DNA from: Candidatus Obscuribacteraceae bacterium
GTDB taxonomy: Bacteria; Cyanobacteriota; Vampirovibrionia; Obscuribacterales; Obscuribacteraceae
Length of the DNA stretch: 64,000 nucleotides
Assembly (NCBI GenBank): GCA_044226015.1
Contig: JBGAHS010000008.1
Location: forward strand, 128,001 to 192,000
Direction of reading: 5' to 3'
In this document: one piece after another, positions 3,722 to 64,000 of the stretch
How the letters are laid out: every line of letters begins with the position of its first letter
Numbering within the stretch: the stretch's first letter is position 1
Position numbers and translations under genes: made by a program
The notes under the pieces: model-generated
What the model saw: the letters and a program-made list of their open reading frames with translations, nothing else
What the model was told of the DNA's origin: nothing
Database searches by the model: none

Positions 3722-6700
3722 GTGCTTGCCGGTTCTATGGAAAGCCAAGTGGCAGAATCAAGCACTAAGAGTTCCAACGCAAACACGGAAGCGCCGAAAT
3801 GGAGCATCTTCCTTGGGCTGACTTTACTGGCGATTGCCTGCGCCTTTTTCAAAAGCATCTTTCTGGCAGAGCCAATTTCGCGCTTTGATTTGATTACACA
3901 ACTAGATGTCCTCTTCAACCCCCAGTTGAATGGCTCAGGAATAACAGTTGCGCAAGATCCCAGCGCGTGCTTACAGAGCATTCCGCGAGAATTCCTGGTT
4001 CAAGAACAACTCAGACATTTCATCTTGCCGCTATGGAACAACCTCTCAGGGTGCGGGCAGCCAATTCTAGCTGACCCGGCAAATACAATCTTTGGACCAA
4101 TCGACGTCATTTTCTCTCCACTAAATCAGTCCGTTTACAACATCGGACTCATCGTTAAAATGCTGATTGGCGGTGCTCTGTCTTTCTGGTTATTCACCAG
4201 ATACGGTGCAGAACCCTGGGCAGCAAGCACAGTAGCGGTAGGTTTCGCACTGTGCGCGAGAGTACTGCGCGGCATCGAGCTTGCGACAGACTACGAAATA
4301 CTGCCGGCAATTTTTCTGGCATTCTCGTTTCTCACACCGAAGGCTAGCATGTCGCGCATCGCTGGCTGTTCTTTGATGCTGGCTTTTGCTTATGTGTCAC
4401 TGCATCCTGAAGTTTTTTTTGTTGGAGTTCTTTCAGCAAGTATAATATGGTTCTCAAACTTCTACTCCGCGTTGAAGGACAAGAAGCGGGTTTTGAAAAG
4501 AGCGTTCCGTAGCTTCATTTTATTCGGCATCATAACTGTTTTGATAGTCTCGCCATTTCTGGTTTCCTTCTTTGAGTACTTGAAGCTTGCTCAGAGCTAC
4601 AAATATCACGATGCAAGCATGCAGTTTATTCCGATTGACCAGTTGCTCAAACACCTATGTGATGCAAAGGTTGATGGAACACTCTTTCCAGGGTGGCTGG
4701 TCATCTTCGGTGCTCTGGCATCAATTTGTTTTAGGTGGAAACAAAAGTGGTCTGTGATGCTTGTAGCCACCTTGTGGATTTTATTTTCGTGCCGACCACT
4801 GGGTCTGATTCAGACGCTGGGAAAGCCGCCGCTTTCGTATTTGCTCCCGGAATATGGTCTAGGCTGCATCCTCTTAATGGTATGCACCATGGCAGCACTT
4901 GGGCTGACTAAACTACGCGAAACAGGGTCAAAAAAATGCCTGGCTGTTGGTGTAGCAGCTAGCATTGGCTCGCTAATACTCGCGTTAAGCGGGGGACTGA
5001 GCAGCGCCAGGCAGCTACTATTGCCGGCACTCACGATGGTCGCGGCTCTGGCGACCATATACATATCTAGAAAAACGAACTCAGAACAGGGAACGAAAAA
5101 CTTAGCAGAAGTTCCGGCTTCAGGTTCAGCATCACTAGTGGCTGCAAACCAAGGTCCCGATAATGATTCTGATTCAAAGGCCGATTCCACTAGTAATAAA
5201 GATGCGGACCCAAGTTCAACGACAGGTCCAACGAGACACCCTGAGGTGGATACTACTTCAACGAGCGATTCATCGACGAATACAAGTGCTGAATCCCGAA
5301 AGAAGGTGCTCAAAGCAGCCCTTGTTCTTTTGCCTGCTATCAATTCATTATTCATGCTCGCGCCAGCCCGACAGGAGCTTCCAGCCACACGACAGGTCGC
5401 GATTCCTCCATCAGGCGAAACCGAATTTATAAACAAGCTCAGATCTTACGGAAACGACAGAGTCACCGCATGTGGTGACCGCATCTTCCAACCGGAAACA
5501 AATTTGCTTTACGGCATTTCAGATTTGCGAACTTGCAGCCCACTAAACAACACGCGATACCTACGTTACATGGAGGCACTTGGAGCCAAACTAGGCTATT
5601 GCAATATGATACAGGTGCCAACCGAGCTAAACCATTTGCTCGACATGGCATCAGTCAAACACATAGTGTCCGACGAGCCACCAGTAGATATTCGAACCAT
5701 CAAAGAGAATTCGAAACAAGAAAAACCAATTGCTGCACAACCAAGCACGCAGCAGGAAGCGGGCAGTAAGAACTCCACAGAAGCAGATACTGTAAGCACC
5801 GAATCTTCGGAGACCCAGAGAACAGCTAGCACTGCAGTGCCATCGACAGCTTCCGACTCTACAGGTTCAAGCACATCTGCAAATTCAAAATCTATTACCA
5901 GCACAAAATCAGCTACCAGCAGCAGCTCAAGCTCATCAGTTGACTCAAGCTCTTCCGTTGACTCAAGCACAATCAATCCAGCATCAAGAGCAAGCACTGA
6001 AGGACGCATTATGCCAGGGTTACGGCTGCTAAAAGTAGACCTCTCTGGAGCACCAGGTCTTGCTTCGGTAAACTGCGAAATCATGCTGCGTGCGCACAAG
6101 CACTTAGGTTCGCGTTACGCCGTTCAACTCCTCATCAAAACAGACAGTGGAGAACTTCTTAGCAGCAAGGCTCAAACCATCAACACTCAAGGCGCGGCGG
6201 TCACAACTCAAACAGAGGCAATATCTAATAGTGATGAGAAAAGCATCGAGTTCGCTGGCGGTTCTGAAAAAGACATCCAAGCAAGCGCCCATAATTCCGA
6301 ACACACCTTTCATATGCCGCTCAATCTGAAGCGCAGCTCCAATCAGCTTCTGCTGCGCATTCTAGACACGTGGACCGGTTCGCGCATACAAGCTGATGGT
6401 AAGAATCTACAAGTCCAAGATAGCGAAATAGTTCTTGCCGACAAGAGTAAACTAAACTCGTTTTTTGATGTTAAAGGTTCCGGCAAAGATAGATTTAGCG
6501 TTGAGTTTGAAAGCCCAACTATGCATAGAATTTATGCGAATAACTCGGCACTTCCATCGGCGTACATTGTGCATCACCTTTTTCTGGCGAGCAATGGCAA
6601 CGAGGCATTGAAAAAGATTAGCGAGAATGACTTCGACTACCAGAATAGCGTCGTGCTGGAAACATACGGACAGCGAATGAATCTCGACCAGCTGAATAAC

Positions 6701-7027: not shown

Positions 7028-7054
7028 TTTTCTTGAGCAGCTATACATTCGCAA

Positions 7055-8860
7055 TCAAGTGTCCTTCTGTTGGAACTCAAGAATTTTAGGCAACTCAGCC
7101 AACTTGTGAATCGGTTCGCAGTCACGGTAACGAATCAGGTCGGGAAGATTTTTATCTGGCTTTCCCAGCCTAACGCACTCCTCCAGTGCAGCTAAACAAA
7201 CATAATTGGCCGACAATTCAGGTTCGAATGTGGGGTAGTGCATCCCTAGATTTCGGCGCATCATTTCTTCCCACCGTTCCAAAGCCATCACGAATTCGCC
7301 AGTATCATGGTAATGCTTGGCTAACAAACGCAGCGCACCTACGTGCCCTTCGGATGCAACTTTCTCAAGTACTTTTTTACCGCGCTCTTTCAACTCAGCC
7401 GCAGGCCAGGGAAGTAAGTAGCGCCCCAGTAAATACTCGCTTTCCCGACAAGGAAACTCCTCTATCAACCTTTCAAAGTAACTTACCTTTCGATTACACA
7501 CATTGCTTATACGAATCAACGTAACTATGGCTCTTAAGTCTCCAGATGCGGCATTCTCCTCAATTTGAGCTAGCTTCTCTTTACTAATCTGCACATTCGG
7601 CTCGCACTTTGGATAGATATAGCTATCGATCTTCTCCAGCTCTAAATACGAAACGGCCACACTATGCCCTTTTTTGGCGGCGCCTGCTATCAGCTGGGCT
7701 CGCCGGTCGTTCCAAATTTCGAAATAATCCCCTCCTCGTTTTTCAACGTAATCTTGATTGGGGCAACGCAAACCCAAAAAAAACATCGCTCCAGCGTGCG
7801 CGTCCTCAACTAGATCAAAAATCGGCAATAGCTCATAGCCCAGCTTGTATTTTGTATATCTCAATTCTCCAAGCAGCAAGCAAAATTTGTATGCAGCTTC
7901 GCTTTCGTCCCTACCTTGAATACGGAACTTTTCGAGGGCTTCGTATATGAAGTCTGGACCCTGCTTAAGGCAAAGTTCAGGTGCTACTTCAAAAGGTGGA
8001 CTGATCCCATAAAACTCAGTTCGCAAATGCAGTGGAATCTCGGTATTGCTATCCCACGGAACATATTTATAGTTCGCTAAAACGACCTTCGCTGATTCCA
8101 CATCATAAGCACATTGCACAAGTTCGTGCAGTTCGGTGACGGCTTCCGCTAGTATTTTTGGTTTTTCCTTATTGTATTCTTCGAATGCTTTGTTGGCTGC
8201 CGTTACTACTCCGACAAATTTACCATGATAATATACGGCTGAATCGACATTACATTTTGTGAAAAAAAATTGATGCAAAATGAAGTGATATACGTCTTCC
8301 TCACTTTCAAAGAAAGTCGATTTGTCAGACTGATACCGATTTATAAACTCACGTATTGCGCATTTTGCCCTGTCAAAAAACTTTTGTCGAGTTTGTATGA
8401 TTTGCCGCCGAGCATGAACAAAATAGATCTCGGCATTTCCGGCAGATAATGAGTATCTCTCTTCAAAGGCTTTTCCTTTAACCGGATACTCACGTTCATT
8501 TTCTTTCCAGGATATCCCAGGACTCAACAAAAATGTGAACAGCTCAAAGAAATTGTTCCGTCGCATCAATCTTCTGGACAAAACTCTCAAAGTCAGTAAT
8601 AGCTGCAGCGTTGACTGAAGGTTAGCCTGAAACCGCGGTGAGAATGGATCAACTTCAGGAACAGCATTCTTCAACTCATCCATTATTCGCTTGGGTACAG
8701 CAATCTTCTTGTCGCCGAAGCTATAGCGAAAATCGTAGAAATCGTAGGGGCTCAGAATTTCGTCGAGCACTTCGAAATTATCATTTTTGGCCAGAAGGAA
8801 TTCAAAAAAGACATCCCCATCAAGAGTCTTATTTTCCTTCTGACTCGACTTTTTTGGCAT
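7055..8860 (-). CDS. Hypothetical protein with C-terminal Sel1/TPR-like helical repeats
   Basis: 601-aa ORF; AAKKGHSVAVSYL, AASGDLRAIVTL, VASEGHVGALRLLAKHY resemble Sel1 repeats; AGAGGAG just upstream of the ATG; overlaps the upstream giant gene by 32 bp. Confidence 0.6.
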   Translation of the reverse strand: MPKKSSQKENKTLDGDVFFEFLLAKNDNFEVLDEILSPYDFYDFRYSFGDKKIAVPKRIMDELKNAVPEVDPFSPRFQANLQSTLQLLLTLRVLSRRLMRRNNFFELFTFLLSPGISWKENEREYPVKGKAFEERYSLSAGNAEIYFVHARRQIIQTRQKFFDRAKCAIREFINRYQSDKSTFFESEEDVYHFILHQFFFTKCNVDSAVYYHGKFVGVVTAANKAFEEYNKEKPKILAEAVTELHELVQCAYDVESAKVVLANYKYVPWDSNTEIPLHLRTEFYGISPPFEVAPELCLKQGPDFIYEALEKFRIQGRDESEAAYKFCLLLGELRYTKYKLGYELLPIFDLVEDAHAGAMFFLGLRCPNQDYVEKRGGDYFEIWNDRRAQLIAGAAKKGHSVAVSYLELEKIDSYIYPKCEPNVQISKEKLAQIEENAASGDLRAIVTLIRISNVCNRKVSYFERLIEEFPCRESEYLLGRYLLPWPAAELKERGKKVLEKVASEGHVGALRLLAKHYHDTGEFVMALERWEEMMRRNLGMHYPTFEPELSANYVCLAALEECVRLGKPDKNLPDLIRYRDCEPIHKLAELPKILEFQQKDT

Positions 8861-11800
8861 AGGCTCCTCTGTTATTTGAAAGCATGGCTATGGCTGCCGC
8901 TGTTTTTAATACATGAGTCTTTAAATACTTGTTTTCTCTAACATTTAAGACTCTCCTCAAAGTCTTTTCTCCCATTAGAAGAGATGGAATACTCAACTCA
9001 GCGATATGTAAGTCGCCTTTGAGCGTTCGTTCCTGTCTAATAGAAGTCGAGCCACCTGGGGGCTTTGAGAACAACATGTGCCCAGGGTTTAGACAAACCT
9101 GCATTCCCCCTATCTTTACTTTTACACTGTCTCTAGATTGGTCAGCTAAATTACAAACTGAAATTCCGATTGGACTAGCACAAATTTGCAAAAAGCTGCC
9201 ACCTTTAACGGAGAGTTTTACCCTGCTGCCGACATAGATCTCCTGGTTTCTTTTTGCATAAAAGTAGAATGTGCCGTTTTCAAAGTGAGTGCCCTGACGC
9301 CGATGATGGAAAGCTCTTGCATGTAAATCCTCAGTCCAGATCTGGAGCCTATCATCGTCCAGATTATATAGCTTAGAATCATAAACGAATTCCGAAAATG
9401 CAATGGGGATTGCATCGAATGCACCAACTTGGCTTCCGTTTTTTAGAACAAATGATTGAAGCTGATTGGCATCAAAGACTACCTGCCTGTTGAGTCCATT
9501 CAGAAAATTTGTGCTCCCAACCCCGGTAACTACCGGCTTACTGTTCCCTTTCGAGTCTGTTTTGGTTCCCCATAAAACCGTTCCTTGAACCACGATGTTA
9601 TCTTGATTTGTAGCCAAGCTTGTATTTGAACCTTGCTGTCCAGCTATACCGAAATACACGTTCCCTTTGTTATCTTCGCCAGCTCCGACAGCATTGACGA
9701 CAGACGCATCCAAAGAAACTCTGGTGCCAGCGATAATTTCAAGATTACCTCGCACTGTATTGATCTGCGATTTCGAGGCGCTCAGAAGCGCAGCCGCAGA
9801 AATAACTGTATCTCCTCCCGCAAGAATGCTTCCATTAGCAAAACGAATGTTTCCGTTTAAGGAATCAATCACAGCCGGACCCGACAATGATACAGGTCCA
9901 GCAATCCTCATATCGCCAAAACCGGCGGATTCTAGCCTCAAAGATGCACCAGCATTGAGGCGGGCTACACTGCTGCTGCTACTTGTGTTATAGACATAAA
10001 CATTTCCTCCAGTACCAACACTGCCATCTTGAGAGAGTCCACCTCGACCGGTACTTACATCGATCACTTTCGCATCAACGACGTATGGAGCATAAAACGG
10101 CAAAGTCGTAAAGTCAAATTCGATGCCACCTAGAGTGCCCGACAAAGGAACATGAGCTAACGGTTGTCCGACCGTTAAGGTTCCGCCATGGACATTTCCT
10201 GAAGTGGAAGTTAAAATCAATCGCCCTGTTGATATGTAATTGCTTGCGTTGATAATGTCCCCACTCAATGCGGTTTCTATTTCAATGCTTGCTGATGACT
10301 TAATACCATTAGAAGTAATGGTAGTTTGCAGGACATCGGAAGCGCTCAAGGTCTTAAGAGAAACTTCCGACAGAGCATCCTTTGCTCCTGTTCCCAAAGG
10401 AAGGGGGAGATCAATTGATCCGTAAGAAACTAAATTCAACACGCCCACCACACCACCATTAGTCCGAAGCTCAGTATTTCCCTTGTTCTCAACATAAAAA
10501 ATTCCACTGAATGATACCTCCAATCTGAGAGCACTTCCTTCAGTTTGAATAGGGAAGCGGCCCAGTCCTATACTACCTTCAGCAGACAACGTGATTGAAT
10601 TGCTTTGTAACTGTGGCAATCTTGTAACCGGTCCATATTCAAGAATGTTTGTCTTAGCAGTGATGCTAATTGAATTTCCTTGAAGATTCGCACCGAATCT
10701 TACGGAGGGAGGGCGGCTCGTTCCATCCAAAGCACCTGTCTGATTTATGTCTAATTTTTGCGCTCTAACTGAAGTAAAATTAGAGCCAAGAGCACTGGAA
10801 GCGGCTGGCTCTTTGCCTGGCTGGAAGCCAAGATTTAAGCTGCCAGCTGACAGAGTAACCGTTCCAACTGAATCCAGCAAAACCTTGTTAGAAGAAGTTG
10901 GATCTGATACTAGATTAAGTGTGAATACAACCCCTTGCTGAGGTATCTCTGAAATCCTTATTTCATTGCTGCTAGCATGGGAAACATCAATAGAAGTGGC
11001 ATTTCCTCCAAACTCTAGATTTATTGAAGAGGGCGCGTCGACATATATCGAACCTATAATCCGTCCTTGAAGATTAGCTTTTAAACTCGAAGCACCATTG
11101 AGTTGCAGTTTTGCAGAATTGATGGTTTCATCTTTTGTATTTACCGATGCGCATTGAATTGTTGTTGAGTTAGCAAGAATTGCTCCATTTATATCAACCC
11201 GCCCTGACTGCAAAGGAGTATTCAATGTTATTTGTGCTCCTAGCGCGTCCTTATTGACCCCCCGAGCATTTAGAGAAGAGCCCACGTCTATAGTGATATT
11301 TCCTCCAGAATCTACATCTATCAATCCGTCATTACCGTTTGCCGAAATTTCTGAGGAATTAGTTACCAAATCAGCTCCTTTAGAAACAAGCTTGACCCAG
11401 CCACCTTTAGTTGCAGGACTGTTGTACTTAGACGAGCTTGAAATCGAAGACTGCCCAATGTCCAGTTTTCCTGCAGATTCAATTAGAATGCTAGGTTCCG
11501 TGCGATTAGTCCAGCCACCATCAGCGGTGACAATAAGATTCTTTCCTTCTCCACCTAAGTTGAGATCTTGTCCACTACTTAAGGAGCGAATTATGACTGT
11601 TCCGCCCGGGTTATTTGAAACGCTATCAGCAAAGATTTCAACTTGCCCGTCTTGCTGAATCGTAGACGCCTCAAGCTTAATAAAACCAAGCTTCGAAGAC
11701 TCAATTCTGAATCCATCAAGGGTTAGCTTGCCTTGAGGTGAGCTAATATTGACCTTGCCTCCTGTACCGGCTACACCAGTTATTGAACCATTCTTTAGCT

Positions 11801-20908: not shown

Positions 20909-20917
20909 AATGCCACA

Positions 20918-21775: not shown

Positions 21776-21776
21776 C

Positions 21777-25821: not shown

Positions 25822-25831
25822 AAAATCCGCT

Positions 25832-55200: not shown

Positions 55201-58200
55201 CACTTCAGCCTACTGGATTGCAAATCGACGGCACAATCTCAAGCACAGAATCAGCTAGTGGAACGGCCGGCTCCGTCAACATCAAGGCAGCCGTAGGTGG
55301 CGGACTTACTGTCAATGGTACTACCGGACCTGACAACATCGGGGCGATCCAGGGCAACACAGTCTCTATTGAGAATACGGGAGCAATTTCGCTTCAAGGC
55401 GCTTCTGAGTCCATAAAAGCAACAAGCTCAGCCTCAGTCAAAGCTGCATCTATTAACACGAACGCAGCAGGCAACGGTGCCATCGATGCGCTTTCCGTCA
55501 CACTACAAACCAATTCCGGTGACATTGGTGCCGCATTTGCAATTTCGACAAAGAACGCAACGTCAACAACTATTGACGCAGCAAGCTCTGCAAGTGTCAC
55601 AAGCTTGACGGCAACGAATGTGAATCTTTCGGTGACTAATCTCGGAAACAATCTAACTTTCGTGAATTCAAATGGCAGCAATGTCAATTTAGCTAGCGAT
55701 ATCACAAGCAACAATAACGGAAATGTTTCAATTTCTGTCGCGAATTTAGCGGGCGACATTAGCTCCACCGGAAACAAGAACATCTCGACCGCGGCATCGG
55801 CAATAGCTGATGGCGGAGATGTGATGCTGTCGACTCACACTGGCAATATCAATCTTGGAACTGGCTCAATAAATGCCAGTGGAACAGCAAGCAACTTCGG
55901 TTCAGGCACTATCCAACTACTTGCAGGCACAACTGGTGCAGGCAACATCACTACCGGTAATCTGACCGCGAATGCGTCAGGCACGGGCACATCGACCGGA
56001 ATACAGCTGACAGGAGACATAATAACTGTAGGTTCTATATCCGCAACCTCCGGCTCGGGCACAGCAGGAAACGTTGATATCGTTGCAACAGAAATTCACA
56101 CTGGAAGCATCACGACAACATCAAGTGGTGCAGCTGGACATGTCGACTTGAGCTCCACATCTACTATTCAGGTGGACGGCAATATCACAGCAACAGGTGC
56201 GTCTAGTGGCTACGTGAGTCTGGCTGAACAATCAGCAACTCCATTCTCGTTCAATTCAGCAACAACCGGCACCAACACAGTGTCTGGCACCATCGCCGGT
56301 GGAGCAGTGAGTATCACCAACACTGGTGGCGACATCTCGTTCGGAGGCAATGCTGCGTCCACTGTGTCTCAATCAACATCGATTGTCGTAACAGCAGGCA
56401 AGGCGGGCACAGCAGGGTCAATCGACTCATCTTCAACATCTGACAATTCTGCGCTCATCTCAACTGGCACTATCATTCTCAACGCAAAAGACGGCGGTGC
56501 GATTGGTGCTAGCAACGCAGTAAAAGTAACCACTGCAAACAATGGAGTCATTGAGATATCCACATCTGGTGCCACGGGCAATGCCAAAGTCCAGGATATA
56601 GGCACGGGAACAACCACCAAGCTTCAAGTAACTTCACTCGGAAACAACTTGAGTTTCACGAAGGTCAACGGTGGAGATCTTCAAATTGACTCTGGCATTA
56701 CTTCAGGCACCACCACCGGCACTATACAGTTGGGTGTAACAGGCGGCGCAGGTTCAATAAAGAATCCAAACAACTTCACACTAACCTCTTCAGGAGCTAC
56801 AGGTGCCGTAGTACTTTCGACGGCTGACGGCAACATTGGTACATTGGCGAACCCAATTCTGGTAGACACCCGCAATCTGAGTGCAGCTGCAGGTGGAGCT
56901 GGAACAAACGTCTATGTTTCTAGCACCGGCGACACCACAGTCACGGGAACCAACAGCGCAGGCGGTACATACCAGTTGGCGAACGCCGCTGGAGACCTGA
57001 TAATTGACACGGCGATAAGCGCAGGCGACGTCCTGCTGCAAACAACCACGGCTACCAAACAAATCATAATGGCCGCTTCGGCCGGAACAATACAATCTTC
57101 GTCTGGCGCAGTAACTCTTCAAACAAACAATGGAAACGTTTCCAGTTCAGGTGGCAACCTCACCGTATTAGCAGCGAACGGAGCAAACTTCGTATTAGGC
57201 AGCGGTGATGTAGCATTCACCAGCGCAGGAGCGAAGGTTTCAGCAACTGCGACCACAGGTAACGTAGACCTGAACGGCTCTGATATCTCGACCACTGGCG
57301 GCAACATCAATTTACAGGCGACTGCAGGTTCCATCTCGAATGGTGGAGCTATCTCATCCAACAATGCTGCAGGTGATGCAGGCTCCATCACGCTGAATGC
57401 GAATTCAAATATAACAGTAGGTGCCGTGACCGCTAGTGCTACATCTGCAGATGGAGCAGGTGGTGCCATCAGTATCGATGCCCTTGGCGCCATCACCATT
57501 GGCGGTGCAGTCAGCTCTGCCACCATCGGCGTTGGCAAAACGGGCGGCGACATCAAGATCGGTCAGAGTGCCATGCCAACGACAGGTCTACAGATAGACG
57601 GCGCTATAGCCAGCACAGCAAGCGCGAGCGGACTCGCTGGCGCAGCTCAAGTGAAAGCTGATAGACCACTTTTGACCGTAAACAACGGTACGGGCGCTGA
57701 TCACATAGGCGCAATCGCAGGTGAATCTGTAACGCTTACGAACACCGGAAATATCTCTCTTGAAGGCGGCACTAACGCCATCACATCAGGTTCTAGCGCA
57801 GTGATCACTGGAGCCGCTATTGACACGAATGGGGCTGGAAATGGAGCGATACAAGCACCATCGGTGACACTTCATTCGACTTCGGGAGATATTGGCGCAA
57901 GTTTTGCAATCTCTACAAAAAATGCGACAGCTGTAGATATTGATGCCGCAGGCTCCGCCAAGGTTACAAGCTTGACCGGCACAAACGTAGATTTAACAGT
58001 CAGCAAGCTCGGTAACAACCTGACGTACCTCAACAATGCAGGAGGAACACTCACCCTTGCTAGTGATATCTCCAGTTTGAATAATGGAAACATCACCATC
58101 ACAAATACCGGTGGTCACATCGTCTCGGCTGACAAAAACATCTACTCATCAGTGAAGTCGAACGCTGCTGGCGGCAATGTGAACCTCATCGCAACTGGCG

Positions 58201-61200
58201 GCAAGAACATCAACCTCGGTGCGGGCATTATCGATGTTAGCGGAAATGGACTGGGTAACAACGGCTCAGGCGGCGTCTACATCGAAGCCAAGGGTGGATT
58301 AGTAAAAACGGGCACAATCACAGCCAATGCTGTTAACGCTGGTCTTACAGCTGGTATTTGGATCGAATCCGACAACGTTTACACCGGAAGCCTGACAGCG
58401 AAAGCAGATGCGGGTGCAAGCTCCACAATAACCATTAAAGCTGTCACTGGAATTCAAGTTGACGGTGATATTAATGCCACAGCTACGAATCCATTAAACT
58501 CAGGAAGCATCTCTATCACAGAGAACTCAAGCTCCACACTAAACTTCAATGTTGCCACTGCTGCTCCAAATTCCATCATGGGCACAATCGCAGGCGGTGC
58601 GGTGACCATAACAAACAAAGGAAGCGGCGGAGTCAAATTCTTAGGTGAGGGCTCGACAAACGCGATAAGTCAATCAAACTCAATCACAGTCACTGCAGGA
58701 GACAATGGGGCTGTTTCAGGAAGCATAAGCTCTGACGGCAGCAACAAGAGCATGCTTGTCTCGACTGGTAATATCATTCTAGTGGCAAACTCTAGCGGAC
58801 CCGGCCTAGGTGGTTCGATCGGAGACTCGACAAACTCAATTATCATCCAGACCGCAACCGGTAAGAACGTAACTGTAGAAACCGATTTCGTAAACCATGG
58901 TGGCGATGTTTTTGTTGAGGACAGAGGAACCGGAACAACAAACCTGTTTATCGGATCTAGCGGCTTGGGTGGTGACCTCACCTACAAGAAGACTGCAGGT
59001 GGAGACCTCAAACTAAACACCAACATTGAAGGTGCTGGATTTGCCAGTGTAACCTTCAGCATAAGCGGCGGCACTGGTTCCATAGACAACAGCCTCGACA
59101 AGATCATAACTGCTAACAACAAACTTGATCTAAGCACGTCTGATGGTAGCATCGGCACGCTAGCCCACCCGATACTCAGCATCGCTGCTAATCTGCGTGC
59201 ATCAGCTGGCGGCACAAGCTCCAATGCTTATGTCAACAACGGCGCTGACGTCACTATCTATGGCAGCAACGGAGCTGGCTCAAACTACCAGGTAGTAAAC
59301 AGCACCGGAACTCTAACCATCGATGGCAGCATAACAGCTGGTAGTGTTCTTCTAAATAACCAGATCAACGGCGCTGCAATCATCATGGGCAGCAATGCAG
59401 GTACGATTCAATCGACCAGTGGCGGCGTTACCCTCATGGCGAACAATGCAGAAATCAATAACACTGCTGGTGGCAACCTCACCATAGATGCAAATACAGG
59501 AGCAAGCATTCAGCTTGGGACTGGTGACATCGCGCTCGGTGGCACAGGAAAAGTGAGCATCACAGCCAAGGGCGGCAACGTCGACCTGAATAACTCCGAC
59601 ATCTTCACCGAAGGCGGCTTGGTACTGCTTGATGCGAGCCCATCTGCAAGCGGATCCATAGTCAACGTCGGCATCATTCAAACGAATGCAGGCGCCACAA
59701 CTGATGGTGGCTCAGTCACCCTCAAGGCTGGAAGCAGCACCAGCGGCAACATCACAACAGGAACCATCACTGCCAGCGGCGGCAGCAGCAACGGCAAGGG
59801 TGGCGCGGTCAGCATAGACGGTGGTGGCACTATCACCATCCCATCGATCACATCCGACGGAACCGGAGGCAACAACGGCGGCGCGGTATCAATAGGTACA
59901 AATACTGCATTCACTTCTCTATCAATGACTGGAAACATCAGCACAAGAGGAGAAAGCTCAGGCGCTGGTAATACAGTAACACTCAAGGGATCAGCTTCAG
60001 GAGCGATCTCAATTCCCGGAGCCATTGACACCAGAGGCGGTAACACCGGTTTCGGTGGTGCGGGTGGCGATGTCACAATGAACGCCGGAGGCACCATATT
60101 TGTTGGTGCCATCACGACTGATGCCTACGGAGCTGGCGTCAATGGTACGAGCGGCAAATTGACTGTCGGCAATTCTCTAGCACCAAGTTCGTTCACCGCA
60201 GGGTCAATTTCTACCCAAGCTCAGACTCCAGACGGACTCGGCGTAGCTAAGGGCGGAGCCGTCACCATCACCGCCGCAGGAGTAATCAACGTTGCAGGCG
60301 GCATCGACAGCCACAGCAACATCTTCCTCGGCAGCACAGGCGGCGCTGTCACCCTCACCAACACCGATAATGTATCGGGAACAACCACCCTTGGACCAAT
60401 TAAGAGCTCTGGTTCAAGCGGCGGACAAATATCTATCAGTGGTGGCTTGAGCATCTCAGTAACTGGCAGTTTAGATGCCCGCGCAACTGCAACAGCAGGT
60501 CCAGGAACTGGCGGACAAGTCACAATCGACAACAGCTCGTCCGCTGGTGGCTCCATCAGCGTAAGCAACAATATATATAGTAAGGGTTCAGAATCAGGTT
60601 CTGGAAGCAAGATAACTTTGAGTGGATCTAGCACCGGCACGATTTCAGTGTTCGGCTCGCTCGATTCGCAGGGTGGAAACTCCGGCACTGGAGGAGCTGG
60701 TGGCGACATCAGCATTAACGCAGGCAGTACAGTCTTCGTTGGCGCAATAGCCACTGACGCTTACGGAGCGGGAGCAGCTGGCAAAGCTGGCTCAGTCACT
60801 GTAGGTGACATCCAGACACCGAGTTCGTTCACCACAACCGCTATCTCCACACAGGCACGAGGAGTTGGCGGTGTAAATGCAAGCGGAGCAGTCAGCATCA
60901 CTGCTGGCAATATCGCTATTGCTGGAGGCATCGCGACTAATGCAAACAGCGTAGCTGGTACCACTGGTGGCGCAATCACCGTAGTGAACAATGCAGCAGG
61001 CAGCACTTCGATAGGTCTCATCAACACAAGCGCTGCCACCGGCGGCACAGTGTCGATGACCGGCGGCTCTAGTATCAGTGCAACTAGCGACATCGACACA
61101 CACGGAACCAACGGCGCTGGTGGAGGAGTCACTCTAGACAACAGCGCTGTCATCGACGGAACAATCAGTGTTAGCGGCGGCATCAACGCAAACGGCACCA

Positions 61201-64000
61201 ATGGCGGTGGCGCAGTTGTTCTCAAAGCCAACAACGTCGCTTCGACCACGTCTACGATTCGCGTGACCAATGGCATCACCACTACAGGTGGCACCGGAGC
61301 GGCTGGCGCAGTCACGGTAGCAGTCAAGAACACCGCAAGCAACCTGATTGTGAACGCTAATACGTCTTTCATAGGCGCAAACATAATCGGCGGCATAACC
61401 AGCACTGGTGCTAGCGGAAACGCCGTCCAAGTTTCGAACTCTGGCGGAAACGTCGAATTTGACCAGGCCGGTAATGCAATAAATGCAACCGGTGCGATAT
61501 CTGTCGTAGCAGCTAACTCGATAATTGGTCACGGCATAGGATTTGGCACACTCAAGTCCGCCACTGGAGTTACACTCAACGCAGGCAATAGCGCGGGCAG
61601 CAATGCAGGAGATGCGATATCCACAAACACGGCATCGCTTACAGCTAATGCAACGCTCGGCTCGGTATTCGTAGACAACACTAACGCTAGTGTGCTGTCG
61701 CTCAAAGCTTCAAAGGCCGGAACAAACTTCACAGTTAGAACCAACAATGGCATTCAAATAGATGGAGACACTGGTTCTTCAGGCAACGGAAATGTATTCC
61801 TCACAACCAGTGCTGGCGATATCACACGCAACCTCGTGACACCATATACGGTGAGCACAGGCAACGGCAATATCACCATCACCGCGCCAGCTGGTAGCGT
61901 AGGTACCGCATTCGGCGGCAACAATGATGTGGCTACGTCCACAGGCTCCAGTGGCTCACTCACATTCCAGGCTGCTAACAGCGTGTTTGTCACCGAGTCT
62001 GGCAGCTCGACAATCGTTGGAACAAATAACGCAAATGGACCAAGTGGCAACGGCTACAATGTGACCTTCGCGACTGGCAACATGACCCTTGCAACAGCCA
62101 TCACCGGCAAGTCTGTTGCTCTGGTTACGCAGGAAGCGAACAAACAGATAGTTATGGGAACAGGCGCTGGAACGATAACATCGACCACGAGCTCAGTACT
62201 GCTCACCACTAATGGTGGCGGAATTATCTCGACAGGTGGTGACCTGAACATCAGCGCAGCCACCAATGCTACCCTGGCACTCAACACATCGACTAACACG
62301 GTTGGCAGCATAGACCTGAGCGGCGTAGCTGGCAAGACCGTGAACATCGTAGCTCCAAGCGGCATCGACCTCAAGGGCGGCGGCAACACAGGGGCCAACA
62401 TCACCACTCTCGGCGGACTCGTACTTCTTCAAGCGGTTGGCGGCGGAGCGACCATCACGAACGTTGGTTCGATAACAACAACCAACACGGCAGGCACCGG
62501 CGGAACTGTGACTGTAAACGCCAACGGTTCTGTCAGCATCGGCGGCGCGATCACCGCTAAAGGCACAGGTGGTGCGGCTAGTGGTGGCGTGATCGCCCTG
62601 ACAGCCGGAGGCGCTAACGGACTCTTTGTCAACGGAGCAATCGACAACACAACTACAGGAACCGGGGTAGGTGGACTTGTCACAGTTACAGATAACTCGC
62701 CGTCAGCACTGACCGTCAATGGTTCGAGTGGTACCAGCCATGTAATTCGTGGCTCAATCACAACCAACGGCACAGTTAACGTAGCAGCAACTGGCGTTGT
62801 CCTCGCAGGTGCCAGTAATGCAATCAACTCTACAGGGGCTTCCTCCGGCATCGGAATCAACGCCAAGACAGGCAGCATCACAGCTGATGCTGCTGGCAAT
62901 GGCGGCTTGAACTCACCTGTAATCGTTCTTACAGGTCAAGCTGGCGTCGGTTCAGTTAGCGGCAATATTCCAATCACGATCACGACCACTGGCACTACAA
63001 GCTTCGGCTCTCTCGCTTCTGGCACGGCGGCAGAAACGTTCATCAGAACAACAAACGGCGGATTGTCAGTTGCAGCGCCAACAGTCGGTGCGGTGCTCGC
63101 TACCGGAATCAGCGGAGACGGTGACATAAAAGTGAACGTCGCAGCCGGCGGCACACTAACGGTCAACACTGGTGACCCGATTATCGCAACAGGTTCAGGA
63201 CGCAGCATCACATTAGGTGCTGACACAATCAACCTAGTCAGCGGTGTGCTCATCAACGCAGGTGCAAACGGCACAGTCAACATCGCTCCGACAACGGCAG
63301 GCAACGCTATCACCGTAGGTGGTGGCGCAGGCTATTTGACTACAACCAACCTGACTACGCAAATTCTGACCAAAGATTTGACAATCGGCAACTTGAGCAC
63401 CTACAACGGAGCCATCACTCTGGGTGCAGCCATTGACACATCATCAGGCGCTGCAGGTTCAGCAGTAGGCAGATACAACCTGTCGATACTCACGCAGAAA
63501 TCAATTGATACCAACACATTCTCAATCACGACTGGTGTCAACAGTATTACATTGAATGCGACCGGCAGCTCACAAGCTGTTGATGTTGACCAGGTAAGCA
63601 GTACCAGTGGTGCGATCAACATTCTAGGTAATGGCATCAACCTCAACCAATCTATTAATGCTACGACTGGAGGCAAAATCACAATTGCTTCGACCGGCGG
63701 CGCAATCACGGGCAACGCTCAAGCGATTGGAAGCGTTGGCAGCGGCGACATCATCATCGACAACAACGGTGGTTCAATTAGCAACATTGGCGCAGTAAGC
63801 GGCGCAGGATTCGTTCGTATCGGCACATCGAATGGAACTAGCAGCACCGCAACTGGCGTTAGCATCAGCACAATCGACAACACCAGCGGGACCGGCGCAG
63901 TCGTCGTTCTAACTGATGTAGGCGGCATCACGACTGGCAAGATTGACTCCAATGGTGCAGTCACAATCAAGGCTACAAACAACAGCAACAGCGGAGCTGT
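46215..64000 (+). CDS. Giant secreted haemagglutinin-like / beta-helix repeat exoprotein, >5900 aa, truncated by the window end (not in the ORF track)
   Basis: AGGAG RBS at 46203-46207; ATG 46215 gives MRIRRRRKIGSVKKSVVLFASSMILINSFMATQSAVA|QS; the same frame reads ...TIKATNNSNSGA at the window end and in every block I spot-checked; the track lists no stop-terminated ORF in this frame; G/S/T/N/A/I-rich. Confidence 0.93.
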   Translation, partial: MRIRRRRKIGSVKKSVVLFASSMILINSFMATQSAVAQSRPGSVPTNMSQATPIGGTTNPNPNTRPTNLDLSAMSGTITSANTSPVNILVGGAMNHGTVSGGTSLIINPGTAVTPAQYVAVFEAMRGNQTLLLNAQGAATGGSFRLNSNQVTTLSGLTVPSGVTGIATGYNANSPLQVAGNVNVLGSLYSLQNAPNMTSVLNMDNLYIGAGGLLSGRMPNGMDLPGVYSSAGMLLNVANSMVNQGVITTPGALNITTGGSITNQSVNNVQAVINAQNIVLNTGTGQIVNSGLIQAMDSLRVNTINPTTNLNIDNTKGILQALGSLNSVTGLFDNNGVITLREDGANLELANVNVSGGQLDAGGGINAFGKNIEIHTDSITGPLSSKGSVAHVSVTSGDLYLGDQILSGDPTYFNNAGNIVISSLTSVAGDLAIVASGSIITTGATTIQTTANNFSIFLGAGFNFTTGGGTNSPSFATNAPGDTTSTLTFDGTTNAGKSINSSGQILNLQTTGTGSITLASTGSTNIGGGTISSEKGDVTIIAGSGFTQTGGSIGTTSGNVTIASAAPVISNTSTVVNGLVTGLPTIGTKNSSAITVQTINSSGGGNVSIQSNAGALTLGGAVTTASGGTISIDTGSITSSGVNIGSASAGAITINPGAGSISSLGSITSAAAINVGSATATGITVGAVDNSAGTGNLTLLTKTGGVSAGALTSMGSIDVQATDGSSSGNISTGAVTNSASAAGTVKLSAASGSVTTSGDISAKGKVEAGDGNGTGLSVGNVSNSTGDIFLASNTGSLTAGTVNAATGSVDASNNSGAITLSDVTAGGAGKQISVTASGTTQVGNLTNLGGSVSVVNSNSGTSTTTGSITTTAAAGGSVLVQGGNSISTGAIDTHGTAGDGGLVLLDVSANPNADISVSGNINTSGTAKGGDLFLLANNVSSTTSEIRVDGSLNASGGTGKAGSVVVAEFNTSALNINSNTASPGANTIGPITATSSVASPDILISNNVGDVHFGGPAGNAIDAKGLVQVTAGGSITGSGTGKGVIKSATNVTLIAGTDAGSFASNAIETNTTSLNATATTGEIYVNNTNAGVLNVDGVVSAKDVYIKTNNGIQLNTNIAPTANGGVTLETAAGDISSPGNKSINTSTGVGDGGYIVLLGTNVDLGTGTLTSNGNGSNKNAGGIGIIAPGGNVTTGAISANATGSGNSDGIGITAKNVHIQGNLTATSASGAGGGITVGTVGSAGGSISIDGNIDATGGTSGSVTLTENSSSQFGFNAGITGTNVIQGTVSGGAITIRNDGTGTIFFADNSATAVTGTSITVTAGTAGVSTGAILGLGTGTAGTNKGALVATTGTISLTSYSNGTSSSFIGTLNSQLVVDQQSGGLVSFTAEGTSSNVFLTDINSGDVTLAASGSNFGNNLSYNKVNGGNITLGTVSSTNNGTISVSISGGVGGDIIQGGSGLLSSPSGSVILSTSNGNIGASGTGGIDIQAANIQANAAGTAKNVFIDANASTSGAVTITGPAAGSSATGSFNLTLVNDGNLTVPSGKTVNGASVDLSTFNGDIKLNGAVTASNGTLHVATGTAGGDIYIGAQLTDLAGGNVLLEAKAPASTIFVTQTLGTTILGTGGDIILKSGSGGLKSNGNDITFSAIGKLDGTGLGGDVNTTGTSTGGGVNFFGATGIDLGTTKIVTDGATGAAGNIALTNATVGTDIKTGGISAVGGTNSVGGNLTAISSGSIYIVGDISTNGNGSGNAGFISLQGTSPSGAIRVDGNLTATSTGGAAGSVSLSETSSAPFQFNVGGSGAANSIKGTISAGAVTIYNYGGDVVFKGANAPGAIAQSSSIQVQAGQLGTTGSITSDGTANSVLNSTGGIALSAVDGGTIGSSTNAVKVKTGSGQGVQLYSDSATGDMFVEDLGTGSTFLQVSNLGHDLTYTKTAGGDLVLGSDIDSDNNGTVSLSITGTGSIDNSVGPYTITAGAVVLSTQTGSVGSNTKVILTDVDKITASATGGSVYITDIGAAQIVGTNSAQNVYSVIESGGNLTLNSAITAGSIDLQVTGGNDLVMGTTAGTLTSTNTGVTISTSSGKIISAGGNLNVHANGLANINLAGGNIDMTGSTGAKVTVESVTDNVNLNSATVTTKGGDVLLNGGVTGSIVNVAGITTNNSTGDAGSITLNAGGNITVGPLSANATSAPGAGGAITIDTPGSLYVTGSISSATVGPAKTGGAINIGQGVSTQPTSIQIDGTISSTATSGGTAGAVNIKAADGSGITVNGSNGAHNIGAVTGNSVAIENIASVTLLGTTDAIIASTSASVKGTSIDTDAATHGAINAKSVTLTSTSGSIGSTAPISTEGSTSTTISAATFAKVTSQTATNVDLSVTSLGTNLNFVNSSGSNVNIASDITSSSNGDINIIVLGTGSITSTSNKNLSTSAAADADGGDITLTTSDGDINLGTGSLNASGTAGAGNNDSGFIVLTAGTNGAITTGSISANAVNAGNSQGISLAAKAIHTGALSANSDSGTAGDISALSDTTIQVDGNISSLSSGAKGMVTLTEDSASAFNFNTGSAAANSVQGSISAGDVSITNFGGDVNFTGGGASDAIAQSTSITVVAGVAGTVAGSITSDGTTHSLINSSGTIDLTAYKGGTIGSSTNAVNLATGAGDTVQLFTEGATGDMFVSDKGTGSPTNLVVTSLGKDLTYTKSSGTLNLGSNITSLNSGTVKISISAAGDIDNSGNKTITAGAFNLSTTNGTIGTSSNPILSDVDKISASAGGATGKVFINNTGAAQIVGTNGATGTYQLKQTTGDLTLNSSISAGDIDIQLLTSGNDFIMGSTAGTLSSNTTGVTITTTNGDVLSSGGSFKISATGSADINLGSGVIDLSATSGAQVNIASGLAGSINLHGSTIKTLGGLVSLQGGGSILNGAAITTSNNAGDAGAITLKSGANITVGALTADATSAAGAGGAVSIDATGTVHVTGAISSATVGPATTGGDIKIGNTLQPTGLQIDGTISSTESASGTAGSVNIKAAVGGGLTVNGTTGPDNIGAIQGNTVSIENTGAISLQGASESIKATSSASVKAASINTNAAGNGAIDALSVTLQTNSGDIGAAFAISTKNATSTTIDAASSASVTSLTATNVNLSVTNLGNNLTFVNSNGSNVNLASDITSNNNGNVSISVANLAGDISSTGNKNISTAASAIADGGDVMLSTHTGNINLGTGSINASGTASNFGSGTIQLLAGTTGAGNITTGNLTANASGTGTSTGIQLTGDIITVGSISATSGSGTAGNVDIVATEIHTGSITTTSSGAAGHVDLSSTSTIQVDGNITATGASSGYVSLAEQSATPFSFNSATTGTNTVSGTIAGGAVSITNTGGDISFGGNAASTVSQSTSIVVTAGKAGTAGSIDSSSTSDNSALISTGTIILNAKDGGAIGASNAVKVTTANNGVIEISTSGATGNAKVQDIGTGTTTKLQVTSLGNNLSFTKVNGGDLQIDSGITSGTTTGTIQLGVTGGAGSIKNPNNFTLTSSGATGAVVLSTADGNIGTLANPILVDTRNLSAAAGGAGTNVYVSSTGDTTVTGTNSAGGTYQLANAAGDLIIDTAISAGDVLLQTTTATKQIIMAASAGTIQSSSGAVTLQTNNGNVSSSGGNLTVLAANGANFVLGSGDVAFTSAGAKVSATATTGNVDLNGSDISTTGGNINLQATAGSISNGGAISSNNAAGDAGSITLNANSNITVGAVTASATSADGAGGAISIDALGAITIGGAVSSATIGVGKTGGDIKIGQSAMPTTGLQIDGAIASTASASGLAGAAQVKADRPLLTVNNGTGADHIGAIAGESVTLTNTGNISLEGGTNAITSGSSAVITGAAIDTNGAGNGAIQAPSVTLHSTSGDIGASFAISTKNATAVDIDAAGSAKVTSLTGTNVDLTVSKLGNNLTYLNNAGGTLTLASDISSLNNGNITITNTGGHIVSADKNIYSSVKSNAAGGNVNLIATGGKNINLGAGIIDVSGNGLGNNGSGGVYIEAKGGLVKTGTITANAVNAGLTAGIWIESDNVYTGSLTAKADAGASSTITIKAVTGIQVDGDINATATNPLNSGSISITENSSSTLNFNVATAAPNSIMGTIAGGAVTITNKGSGGVKFLGEGSTNAISQSNSITVTAGDNGAVSGSISSDGSNKSMLVSTGNIILVANSSGPGLGGSIGDSTNSIIIQTATGKNVTVETDFVNHGGDVFVEDRGTGTTNLFIGSSGLGGDLTYKKTAGGDLKLNTNIEGAGFASVTFSISGGTGSIDNSLDKIITANNKLDLSTSDGSIGTLAHPILSIAANLRASAGGTSSNAYVNNGADVTIYGSNGAGSNYQVVNSTGTLTIDGSITAGSVLLNNQINGAAIIMGSNAGTIQSTSGGVTLMANNAEINNTAGGNLTIDANTGASIQLGTGDIALGGTGKVSITAKGGNVDLNNSDIFTEGGLVLLDASPSASGSIVNVGIIQTNAGATTDGGSVTLKAGSSTSGNITTGTITASGGSSNGKGGAVSIDGGGTITIPSITSDGTGGNNGGAVSIGTNTAFTSLSMTGNISTRGESSGAGNTVTLKGSASGAISIPGAIDTRGGNTGFGGAGGDVTMNAGGTIFVGAITTDAYGAGVNGTSGKLTVGNSLAPSSFTAGSISTQAQTPDGLGVAKGGAVTITAAGVINVAGGIDSHSNIFLGSTGGAVTLTNTDNVSGTTTLGPIKSSGSSGGQISISGGLSISVTGSLDARATATAGPGTGGQVTIDNSSSAGGSISVSNNIYSKGSESGSGSKITLSGSSTGTISVFGSLDSQGGNSGTGGAGGDISINAGSTVFVGAIATDAYGAGAAGKAGSVTVGDIQTPSSFTTTAISTQARGVGGVNASGAVSITAGNIAIAGGIATNANSVAGTTGGAITVVNNAAGSTSIGLINTSAATGGTVSMTGGSSISATSDIDTHGTNGAGGGVTLDNSAVIDGTISVSGGINANGTNGGGAVVLKANNVASTTSTIRVTNGITTTGGTGAAGAVTVAVKNTASNLIVNANTSFIGANIIGGITSTGASGNAVQVSNSGGNVEFDQAGNAINATGAISVVAANSIIGHGIGFGTLKSATGVTLNAGNSAGSNAGDAISTNTASLTANATLGSVFVDNTNASVLSLKASKAGTNFTVRTNNGIQIDGDTGSSGNGNVFLTTSAGDITRNLVTPYTVSTGNGNITITAPAGSVGTAFGGNNDVATSTGSSGSLTFQAANSVFVTESGSSTIVGTNNANGPSGNGYNVTFATGNMTLATAITGKSVALVTQEANKQIVMGTGAGTITSTTSSVLLTTNGGGIISTGGDLNISAATNATLALNTSTNTVGSIDLSGVAGKTVNIVAPSGIDLKGGGNTGANITTLGGLVLLQAVGGGATITNVGSITTTNTAGTGGTVTVNANGSVSIGGAITAKGTGGAASGGVIALTAGGANGLFVNGAIDNTTTGTGVGGLVTVTDNSPSALTVNGSSGTSHVIRGSITTNGTVNVAATGVVLAGASNAINSTGASSGIGINAKTGSITADAAGNGGLNSPVIVLTGQAGVGSVSGNIPITITTTGTTSFGSLASGTAAETFIRTTNGGLSVAAPTVGAVLATGISGDGDIKVNVAAGGTLTVNTGDPIIATGSGRSITLGADTINLVSGVLINAGANGTVNIAPTTAGNAITVGGGAGYLTTTNLTTQILTKDLTIGNLSTYNGAITLGAAIDTSSGAAGSAVGRYNLSILTQKSIDTNTFSITTGVNSITLNATGSSQAVDVDQVSSTSGAINILGNGINLNQSINATTGGKITIASTGGAITGNAQAIGSVGSGDIIIDNNGGSISNIGAVSGAGFVRIGTSNGTSSTATGVSISTIDNTSGTGAVVVLTDVGGITTGKIDSNGAVTIKATNNSNSGA
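51500..59800 (+). repeat. ~2.3-kb (~760-790 aa) degenerate super-repeat, about 3.5 copies, inside the giant gene
   Basis: Markers AIAQSSSIQV (51723), AIAQSTSITV (54009), TVSQSTSIVV (56361), AISQSNSITV (58662); QIDG(T/A)I(S/A)ST at ~52935, 55221, 57591; boundaries approximate. Confidence 0.85.
59900..60950 (+). repeat. ~212-aa tandem duplication inside the giant gene
   Basis: GGAGGD..(M/I)NAG.T(I/V)FVGAI.TDAYGAG...PSSFT...ISTQA occurs twice; DAYGAG at ~60120 and ~60756 (636 bp apart). Confidence 0.8.

Follow-up and report, generated by a model that had tools for sequence, protein, structure and literature searches.

Introduction

In the Arn pathway, lipid A is aminoarabinosylated through ArnB, ArnA, ArnC, ArnD, ArnEF and ArnT. 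Sulfated surface glycans are known in bacteria, and 3'-phosphoadenosine 5'-phosphosulfate (PAPS) is cytoplasmic. Here we describe a locus in which Arn-like genes stand together with sulfation genes and a large set of glycosyltransferases (GTs) of the GT-C type. It lies in a stretch of 64,000 nucleotides, referred to as the window, from a Candidatus Obscuribacteraceae bacterium (contig JBGAHS010000008.1 of assembly GCA_044226015.1; C12:128001-192000 in our numbering), whose genome of 8.19 Mb in 13 contigs is 92% complete. G-numbers denote genomes (this one is G000), C-numbers contigs and L-numbers opened loci. From the window, 25 protein sequences were scanned against Pfam and NCBIfam at curated cut-offs.

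Three-component decoration by GT-C enzymes is established for O-polysaccharide (OPS) and rhamnan exported by ABC transporters (PMC11127046, PMC8035078). Our locus shares with the GtrABC, Klebsiella ABC-exported OPS and GT136 pentofuranose systems a polyprenol-phosphate synthase and GT-C genes beside Wzm/Wzt, and periplasmic side chains would be the common outcome. Those systems employ one GT-C (PMC11127046), whereas here a single cluster has ten and the genome about 30. Neither a GtrA nor a MATE flippase was found, and the donor is predicted to be sulfated or N-acylated. The CsbB/GtcA/YfhO, GacIJKL and CsdAB systems likewise pair GT-Cs bearing YfhO or PMT_2 domains with GT2s and decorate ABC-exported rhamnan outside (PMC8035078), but our host is a diderm with lipopolysaccharide (LPS), its YfhO matches are C-terminal only, and there is no lipoteichoic or wall teichoic acid context. 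In the Pgf system of Streptococcus mutans (PgfS, PgfM1, PgfM2, PgfE), a GT2 and YfhO-type GT-Cs are clustered with genes for large Ser/Thr-rich exoproteins, as they are in the window (PMC12041528); the window proteins, however, score 19-120 bits against Pgf cut-offs of 500-1500, and their putative targets would be folded repeat proteins of a dispersed 49-member family without conserved linkage. Melainabacteria, the non-photosynthetic sister lineage of cyanobacteria, are diderm and possess lipid A genes (PMC4040986).

The initial annotation of the window proposed a lipid-carrier (GT2 plus GT-C) pathway of extracytoplasmic decoration, different from a standard Wzy O-antigen cluster, and saw in two giant exoproteins the acceptors that it would turn into a sulfated, mucin-like coat. 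Every gene it named was present at its place in family scans, and this content supports a decoration locus of the proposed kind; the link to the giants was not supported by comparison with relatives. We conclude that the locus is a real GT-C-rich island for decoration of envelope glycans, a variant of the known three-component systems, and that its new part is a cassette of a GT2 (GT2b) and a sulfotransferase. The explanation that we favour, while holding it a little short of probable, is that the locus forms the strain-variable decorating arm of a surface-glycan pathway: modified single sugars, likely one of them sulfated, would be carried on a lipid and added outside the cytoplasm to a Wzm/Wzt-exported backbone that is likely ligated to LPS, the giants being likely bystanders.

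The GT2b-sulfotransferase cassette

The genes cysD (37836..38636), cysNC (35988..37826), GT2b (34899..35903) and the sulfotransferase gene (34166..34909) are co-directional on the minus strand, and the last two overlap by 11 bp. Family matches identify CysD as the small subunit of ATP sulfurylase (a second copy is present on C11) and CysNC as the large subunit plus adenosine 5'-phosphosulfate kinase. The sulfotransferase matches PF13469 (64 bits, cut-off 27), has no transmembrane (TM) segment, and finds its relatives in the PDB in 3rnl (E 7e-20) and in HS3ST and NDST enzymes (E 1e-8 to 7e-6). Judged by sequence, it is a cytoplasmic PAPS-dependent member of the heparan-sulfate N-/3-O-sulfotransferase fold family with a local supply of PAPS, as predicted from cysD and cysNC upstream on the same strand. 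These three genes support the view that the locus includes sulfation. GT2b is an ArnC-like predicted polyprenol-phosphate sugar synthase (NF007986, 180 bits against a cut-off of 529) and, like GT2a of the same window, carries two C-terminal TM segments.

The pair is conserved among relatives. A search of 103 family genomes found close homologues of the sulfotransferase (44-50% identity) in 11 besides the host, and at all eight family loci opened, from seven genomes, GT2b stands directly upstream of it. The pair is flanked by a polytopic protein of ~500-535 amino acids at six of these eight loci, all in one genus, and by a YfhO gene at one; at L155, in one relative, GT2b, sulfotransferase and YfhO genes form a run on a single strand. 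At another locus, L152 (G015:C612), three more sulfotransferase genes, a GNAT gene and two GT2 genes come after the pair.

A metagenome library contains 290 representatives of sulfotransferase homologues at E <= 1e-30; a metagenome scan with the single sulfotransferase sequence as query gave no match, and none was found in plasmids. The 80 metagenomic loci, with flanks of up to 6 kb, fell into 44 groups at 70% identity. An ArnC-like GT2 adjoins the sulfotransferase in 34 of the 44 groups, a raw count for homologues of this sulfotransferase. Where at least 9 kb was available (19 groups), an RffA-like gene was present in nine, any DegT gene in 15 and PAPS genes in five. ArnE/F-like small proteins follow the sulfotransferase in seven of the 44 groups, all below family cut-offs; the small multidrug resistance (SMR) profile used for this count was derived from 11 of these very proteins.

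The layout of the cassette parallels the arn operon, with the sulfotransferase where ArnA/ArnD stand. An aminotransferase, an ArnC-like undecaprenyl-phosphate (Und-P) synthase and a GT-C are common to the locus and the Arn pathway, and distant cassettes share also the ArnE/F-like SMR pairs. The locus differs in that ArnB is replaced by RffA/WecE, a dTDP-4-amino-4,6-dideoxyhexose transaminase (41479..42654, minus strand; NF008687 531 > 375 bits, TIGR02379 498 > 435), and ArnA/ArnD by the sulfotransferase with CysD/CysNC; it has many GT-Cs and no ArnE/F. Membership of the Arn families proper was rejected, as every Arn family score lies below cut-off (ArnC model 107 and 180 against 529, ArnB model 201 against 631) and ArnA, ArnD and ArnT have no match among the window proteins. 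From the Arn-like layout with its sulfotransferase we infer a sulfated lipid-carried sugar; by analogy, it may be a sulfated, possibly N-sulfated, 4-amino-4,6-dideoxyhexose carried on Und-P.

A bolder view, which we regard as possible yet doubtful, would make GT2b and the sulfotransferase a widespread undescribed Arn-like pathway. A 4-amino-4,6-dideoxyhexose would be N-sulfated in the cytoplasm by the heparan-sulfate-type sulfotransferase, cross the membrane on Und-P and be attached outside by a GT-C; in Obscuribacterales the pathway would feed an envelope glycan finished by about 30 GT-Cs without a GtrA/Wzx flippase and, in the boldest form, 49 giants would be among the acceptors. A literature search, with few subscription journals, yielded no described route for a sulfated lipid-carried donor attached outside. 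If such a route is real, sulfate is delivered to the cell surface without export of PAPS, and a bacterial sugar N-sulfotransferase would interest glycoengineers. The locus also provides a first picture of envelope glycan assembly in the sister lineage of cyanobacteria, one seemingly reliant on an unusually large GT-C set. The idea of a giant-glycoprotein coat is unsupported by linkage; the sulfo-donor cassette is the part of most interest.

GT-C enzymes and the extent of the cluster

Two polyprenol-phosphate sugar synthases and six GT-C-like genes are found in the window. GT2a (30381..31307, plus strand) is predicted to be of the ArnC/GtrB type, its matches to NF007986 and NF047588 being below cut-off. 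Three of the GT-C-like proteins resemble YfhO: YfhO 1 (3722..7027, plus strand; 1101 amino acids, ~11 TM segments, 44 bits), YfhO 2 (17693..20908, minus; 1071 amino acids, 36.8 bits, supported by alignment) and YfhO 3 (22882..25821, minus; 979 amino acids, 33 bits). All exceed the cut-off of Pfam PF09586 (33-44 bits against 28.5), with a match confined to the C-terminal ~70-90 residues, that is, to ~70-90 of 835 profile positions. In a profile comparison their TM region matched the profile of the second group with a probability of 89.8%; a PDB sequence search with the YfhO-like profile gave no match. This second group, named the FPINDD family after its motif, comprises F1 (26353..28125, minus; 590 amino acids, GDFPINDD), F2 (28378..30168, minus; 596 amino acids, GDFPINDD, PMT_2 30.6 bits), which is divergent from GT2a-wbqC, and F3 (42861..44657, plus; 598 amino acids, GNFPINDD, PMT_2 40.8 bits). 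F1 was assigned by motif and alignment and matches no Pfam family. The two paralogous triplets of the initial annotation are not confirmed as such: they are subsets of the 12 YfhO-like and 6 FPINDD-family genes of the host, which has 30 GT-C-like genes overall.

The AlphaFold model of F3 (pLDDT 84) has a GT-C fold. It was superimposed on AglB (Z 21.8, root mean square deviation (rmsd) 4.9, 399 residues aligned), ArnT (Z 21.5, rmsd 5.3, 399 aligned, 11% identity), Pmt2 (Z 21.0, rmsd 4.7, 378 aligned) and ALG12 (Z 20.9). Since AglB, STT3, ArnT, Pmt and ALG12 are tied at Z 20.9-21.8, the fold names no acceptor. According to this model, F3 is a member of the GT-C superfamily with an acidic pair in the first periplasmic loop; D54 is invariant and D55 nearly so in an alignment of 13 homologues, and the nearest public homologues of F3 belong to Candidatus Obscuribacterales / Obscuribacteraceae. 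A canonical N-oligosaccharyltransferase (STT3/PglB/AglB) was rejected: PF02516 has no match in the host genome, while the control search was positive in four archaea, and F1-F3 lack a WWDYG motif.

The glycan cluster was said to be bracketed by two giants. It extends, however, to the left of the window, where C12:112972-127997 encodes another GT-C of the FPINDD family (the fourth), a protein matching PMT_2, a further pair of YfhO proteins and a carbamoyltransferase of the NodU type; carB belongs to this side as well. The extended cluster thus holds ten GT-C-like genes across 60 kb and, because of these four further GT-C genes, giant 1 lies inside it. The NodU-type carbamoyltransferase and a DUF5989 membrane partner stand beside carB and YfhO 1 at C12:124051-131707 (including window positions 297-3707), and the carbamoyltransferase, carB and YfhO genes are clustered in G007 as well; this grouping suggests carbamoylation of a glycan fed by carbamoyl-phosphate synthase.

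YfhO 1 and YfhO 2 bear long Ser/Thr-rich low-complexity inserts, at about residues 480-520 and 680-760 of the former and 880-960 of the latter, where 15-nt repeats occupy positions 18051-18252. Regions of this type are glycosylated by streptococcal YfhO enzymes (PMC12041528). Elsewhere in the host genome, at C1:540891-657079 (L061-L063) and C8:437890, there is a further, conserved set of polytopic proteins of ~800-970 amino acids, a family core with two GT4s; some match PMT_2 weakly, most have no family label. In one of them we see a DD...YRP pattern, which we take to be that of TMTC O-mannosyltransferases.

Predicted backbone export and the flippase

The Wzt ATPase (20918..21775, minus strand; TagH/Wzt models, below cut-off) and the Wzm permease (21777..22742, minus; family match to ABC-2 permeases), the latter encoded by a single copy in the genome, lie between YfhO 2 and YfhO 3. 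Wzt, of 285 amino acids, leaves no room for a C-terminal carbohydrate-binding module. Of 78 family genomes, 71 have a wzm homologue, with 42-72% identity in ~63 of these; they include the genomes G059, G079 and G013, in which no giant was found. In six of eight annotated neighbourhoods (G058, G059, G087, G098, G079 and G081, not G041 or G061), wzm is accompanied by a GtrB-like GT2, an epimerase, GT4s, GT-Cs of ~900 amino acids and MBOAT/SGNH genes, and the same set is found in G022. Around this core the sugar modules swap from strain to strain. By analogy with described systems, the core would correspond to a backbone exported by the ABC transporter and the variable modules to side chains added in the periplasm, though on a far larger scale than in those systems.

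As the initial annotation had stated, the 25 window proteins include no match to Wzy, Wzx, WaaL or GT4 families, but the host genome has GT4s for chain building, and genes of the WaaL family, at other places. A GT4 block, split from wzm, is located at C1:648-657 kb; in its vicinity are rml genes, a rhamnosyltransferase-like GT2 and a phosphoglycosyl transferase. The LPS genes include lpxC, lpxK, kdtA, a GT9 and three Wzy_C/WaaL-family matches, two of them above cut-off. All parts of an ABC-dependent O-antigen pathway are thereby present, split over C12, C1, C4, C6 and C8, and we presume that they act together. Wzz was not found in the host genome; two weak SMR/EamA-like genes were. As GtrA and Wzx were not found either, in spite of about 30 GT-Cs and several polyprenol-phosphate GT2s in the genome, Wzm/Wzt may itself flip the Und-P sugar donors.

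A 170-residue membrane-anchored protein encoded between YfhO 3 and F1 (25832..26344, minus strand) has no Pfam family and matches unnamed clusters only in the Atlas. Its homologues, which resemble lipoproteins in other genera, accompany either wzm or YfhO genes. In G022, G058, G059, G081, G087 and G098 they stand directly upstream of wzm; in G001 and G007 their neighbours are YfhO genes. This protein is a candidate accessory subunit.

The giant exoproteins and their linkage to GT-C loci

Giant 1 (8829..17267, minus strand; 2812 amino acids) and giant 2 (46215..64000, plus strand) point outward, as initially annotated, but their homology is only distant: 25% identity over 203 residues of the C-terminal domain (E 2e-10) and 26% in an N-terminal alignment. 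The window holds the first 5928 of the 14,391 residues of giant 2, which extends 25 kb beyond it and is followed tail-to-tail by a paralogue of 10,968 residues. An N-terminal profile search found 49 giants in the host genome, of 1,692-14,391 residues and 602 kb in total; across the family the copy number ranges from 0 to about 50 per genome, the longest having 25,007 codons (G098). The shared N-terminal domain contains RPG within the first 80 residues in 29 of the 49. The common C-terminal domain, carried by giant 2 too, models as FecR-like (4m0h, 6ovk; probability 1.0, E about 0.01), occurs also on ~15 smaller, mostly secreted proteins, and could be a lineage-specific sorting or anchoring signal.

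The giants had been described as mucin-like, a description contradicted by their composition: none of 56 windows of 50 residues in giant 1, and none of 287 in giant 2, reaches 50% Ser+Thr+Pro. Their bodies are Gly/Asn/Ser/Thr repeats with 22-25% Ile/Leu/Val and 1-3% Pro, predicted to be secreted and beta-helix-like, of the haemagglutinin type; an Atlas lead (Fil_haemagg 0.86) is weak. With filamentous haemagglutinin/TpsA they share a signal-peptide-like N-terminus and Gly/Ser/Thr/Asn repeats, but they have no match to the Pfam TPS domain and possess the FecR-like C-terminal domain; a search for ShlB/TpsB was silent in the host and likewise in control genomes, and is therefore uninformative. 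The claimed richness in N-x-S/T holds as a slight excess in the two window giants (54 against 41.6+/-5.1 and 394 against 350+/-14 in shuffles, that is, 2.4 and 3.1 SD), but not for the family, since the median excess across the 49 paralogues is 1.12 as compared with 1.13 for the reversed motif.

Conserved linkage to giant genes in relatives, proposed as a check of the dedicated-acceptor idea, was largely absent. Of the 17 GT-C loci in the host genome, four lie within 10 kb of a giant, versus 2.0 expected (P 0.14), and a random run of 31 genes contains at least two giants with a probability of 0.09. Among relatives with at most 80 contigs, giants stand within 10 kb of one of the 34 GT-C loci (1.8 expected) and within 25 kb of two (3.3 expected). 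In fragmented relatives, two of 27 FPINDD genes and two of 33 YfhO genes lie that close (10 kb) to a giant, where at most 1.5 and 1.8 would be expected; this test is biased against linkage because contigs often break at giants, and it excluded G017, G018 and G004, the last of which is positive, with a C-terminal fragment as its giant. Giant counts in relatives were tallied by hand among the matches listed, with 27 weak matches outside the tally, and are approximate for G017, G060, G061, G068, G074 and G098.

Giant-poor relatives keep full clusters. Complete wzm/wzt and GT-C clusters are retained in G059 (one contig, no giant found), G058 (one giant) and G087 (three giants), and a GT-C/Rml cluster in G013 (no giant found); G061 and G068 have ~50 giant-domain matches each, yet one full-length YfhO-like gene and no FPINDD type. 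The same carB-YfhO-carbamoyltransferase-YfhO-YfhO block occurs in G007 with no giant on its 78.6-kb contig. With one FPINDD protein as query 16 loci were found, and the 14 annotated ones contain no giant-family gene; one locus carries a Gly/Ser-rich open reading frame (ORF) of 1459 amino acids. In a quick-search tree, in which giant 1 has a long branch, cluster-embedded giants did not group together, though the giants of 5.6 thousand residues in G003 and G005 pair. On this tree, those near F3-wbqC-rffA in G003-G005 represent two shared lineages unrelated to the window giants, and the nearest own-genome kin of the giant of 8.2 thousand residues of G004/G005 is C12:494476, about 320 kb away. Owing to near-chance linkage in the host and in relatives, a dedicated giant-locus link is unlikely, and the giants are probably bystanders and not parts of the pathway. 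A Pgf-type linkage to disordered Ser/Thr-rich acceptors was likewise rejected, given this linkage and the lack of mucin-like windows.

The favoured explanation and its alternatives

If the locus decorates an exported glycan, the following course may be proposed. By family assignment, CysD/CysNC would make PAPS, and RffA would make dTDP-4-amino-4,6-dideoxyhexose from an Rml intermediate, the rml genes being on C1. GT2b and GT2a would, from their likeness to ArnC, make Und-P sugars, and the pairing of genes points to the cytoplasmic sulfotransferase as the enzyme that would sulfate the GT2b donor before flipping, on the 4-amino group or a hydroxyl. WbqC and two acyltransferases may supply other substituents. 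The ten GT-Cs of the extended cluster, whose fold is modelled for F3, would each add one periplasmic sugar to the predicted acceptor. For the backbone, the phosphoglycosyl transferase, the GT2 and two GT4s of C1 would be responsible; orthologues of these GT4s stand next to wzm/wzt in relatives. A polysaccharide is the likeliest acceptor because LPS genes, WaaL-family ligases and GT4s (beside wzm/wzt in relatives) are present in the genome.

Several observations weigh against this explanation. GtrA is found in none of eight genomes of the own genus, Wzx was not found in the 92%-complete host genome, and there is no small SMR-type gene in the locus; for an O-antigen exporter, Wzm is unusually conserved, and its single copy is unusual too, so that the role of a flippase would suit it equally. 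GT2b-sulfotransferase pairs of genus g45 have no rffA nearby, hence the sugar need not be an amino sugar, and only eight of 35 polytopic neighbours of metagenomic cassettes (scanned out of 42 after near-duplicates were dropped) match PMT, PMT_2 or YfhO, three of them above cut-off. The acceptor of these GT-Cs is itself predicted; the model of F3 fits enzymes with protein acceptors (AglB, STT3, Pmt) and with lipid or glycan acceptors (ArnT, ALG12) equally, and YfhO-family enzymes can glycosylate Ser/Thr-rich proteins (PMC12041528). In addition, the F3-wbqC-rffA module has a giant within 3 kb in three relatives (G003, G004, G005), both of the largest GT-C clusters of the host contain a giant, and across 33 genomes the number of giants is correlated with that of GT-Cs (rho 0.53); outside the own genus, the source of the queries, the correlation is rho 0.33 (p 0.09), with kin that are not independent.

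These last points would speak for the model of the initial annotation, a dedicated Pgf-like system that O-glycosylates the neighbouring giants into a sulfated coat; here too a giant lies within 3 kb of that module, and the sequons of the window giants exceed shuffles. The pgf cluster of S. mutans, with its GT2, two YfhO-domain GT-Cs and Ser/Thr-rich adhesin targets, is a precedent (PMC12041528), and matches to PgfM1/M2 and PgfS, weak and far below cut-off, were obtained. On the other hand, the 49 paralogues are dispersed genome-wide with linkage near chance, the embedded giants do not group, the giants are beta-helix-like whereas the Pgf precedent targets disordered regions, STT3 has no match in the genome, and no ORF of more than 1140 amino acids occurs at the 80 sulfo-cassette loci with flanks of up to 6 kb; we consider this model very unlikely. 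General O-glycosylation of many secreted and membrane proteins by some of the GT-Cs, possibly including the giants and independent of gene position, is unlikely in our view. It is in line with the activity of the YfhO-family PgtC2 and PgfM1 on Ser/Thr-rich disordered regions of many proteins (PMC12041528), with the inserts of YfhO 1 and 2, and with the tie of F3 to Pmt and oligosaccharyltransferase folds, but other YfhO members act on teichoic acids, so the family fixes no acceptor (PMC8035078), and strain-to-strain swapping of sugar modules resembles serotype variation. Wzm/Wzt, acyltransferase_3, MBOAT/SGNH and NodU-type genes are, moreover, companions of the polysaccharide type.

Another possibility is that the FPINDD enzymes are ArnT-like and transfer amino- or sulfo-sugars directly to lipid A or LPS core, tuning surface charge. 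The tie for best fold includes ArnT, the genome has lipid A genes, and distant cassettes mirror the arn operon (aminotransferase, ArnC-like GT2, ArnE/F-like pair, GT-C); nevertheless, identity to ArnT is 11% without a match to its family, lipid A offers few sites for ten GT-Cs, and sulfate adds negative charge instead of masking it, which makes this role quite unlikely. It is also conceivable, if improbable, that the GT-Cs form an assembly line, Wzm/Wzt flipping Und-P monosaccharides from which ~30 GT-Cs build a branched glycan stepwise outside on a short lipid anchor, like ALG or mycobacterial Aft/Emb enzymes. The 30 GT-C-like genes versus few chain-building soluble GTs, the lack of matches to GtrA, Wzx and Wzz, the conserved single-copy Wzm across strains that differ in sugar genes, a Wzt without chain-recognition module and the closeness of F3 to ALG12 (Z 20.9) as much as to ArnT would agree with it. 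However, known Wzm/Wzt substrates are polymers on undecaprenyl diphosphate (PMC11127046). A phosphoglycosyl transferase is present in the genome, as are GT4s, whose linkage to wzm is seen in relatives, and the donors might be flipped by proteins of the major facilitator superfamily (MFS), LPG-synthase-TM or SMR type. Decoration of an exported polysaccharide is the explanation that we favour.

Other genes of the window

The WbqC-family protein (31313..32038, plus strand; PF08889, 244 bits) belongs to a family found in 30 of 78 family genomes. WbqC is associated with a glycyl-transfer role; the literature search yielded no paper on such a role. The two acyltransferase_3 membrane acyltransferases (32124..33362 and 39980..41251, both minus) were assigned by Acyl_transf_3 matches. 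A TauE/SafE transporter (38856..39698, plus) and a sugar-1-phosphate nucleotidyltransferase of the NTP transferase family (44798..45577, minus) are likewise family matches, and a secreted protein of 227 residues (33359..34042, minus) has weak matches to tetratricopeptide repeats; its homologue adjoins F3 in G004. A 601-residue gene at 7055-8860, with no family match and no paralogue, overlaps the end of giant 1 by 32 bp, and the two may have been inserted jointly. Between window positions 1 and 46,300, neither insertion repeats nor ends of mobile elements were found, and the GC content at third codon positions (GC3) of the cluster genes falls inside the genome range. At the junction of the converging wbqC and acyltransferase 1 genes, two tandem 41-nt copies, 95% alike, occupy positions 32044-32125.

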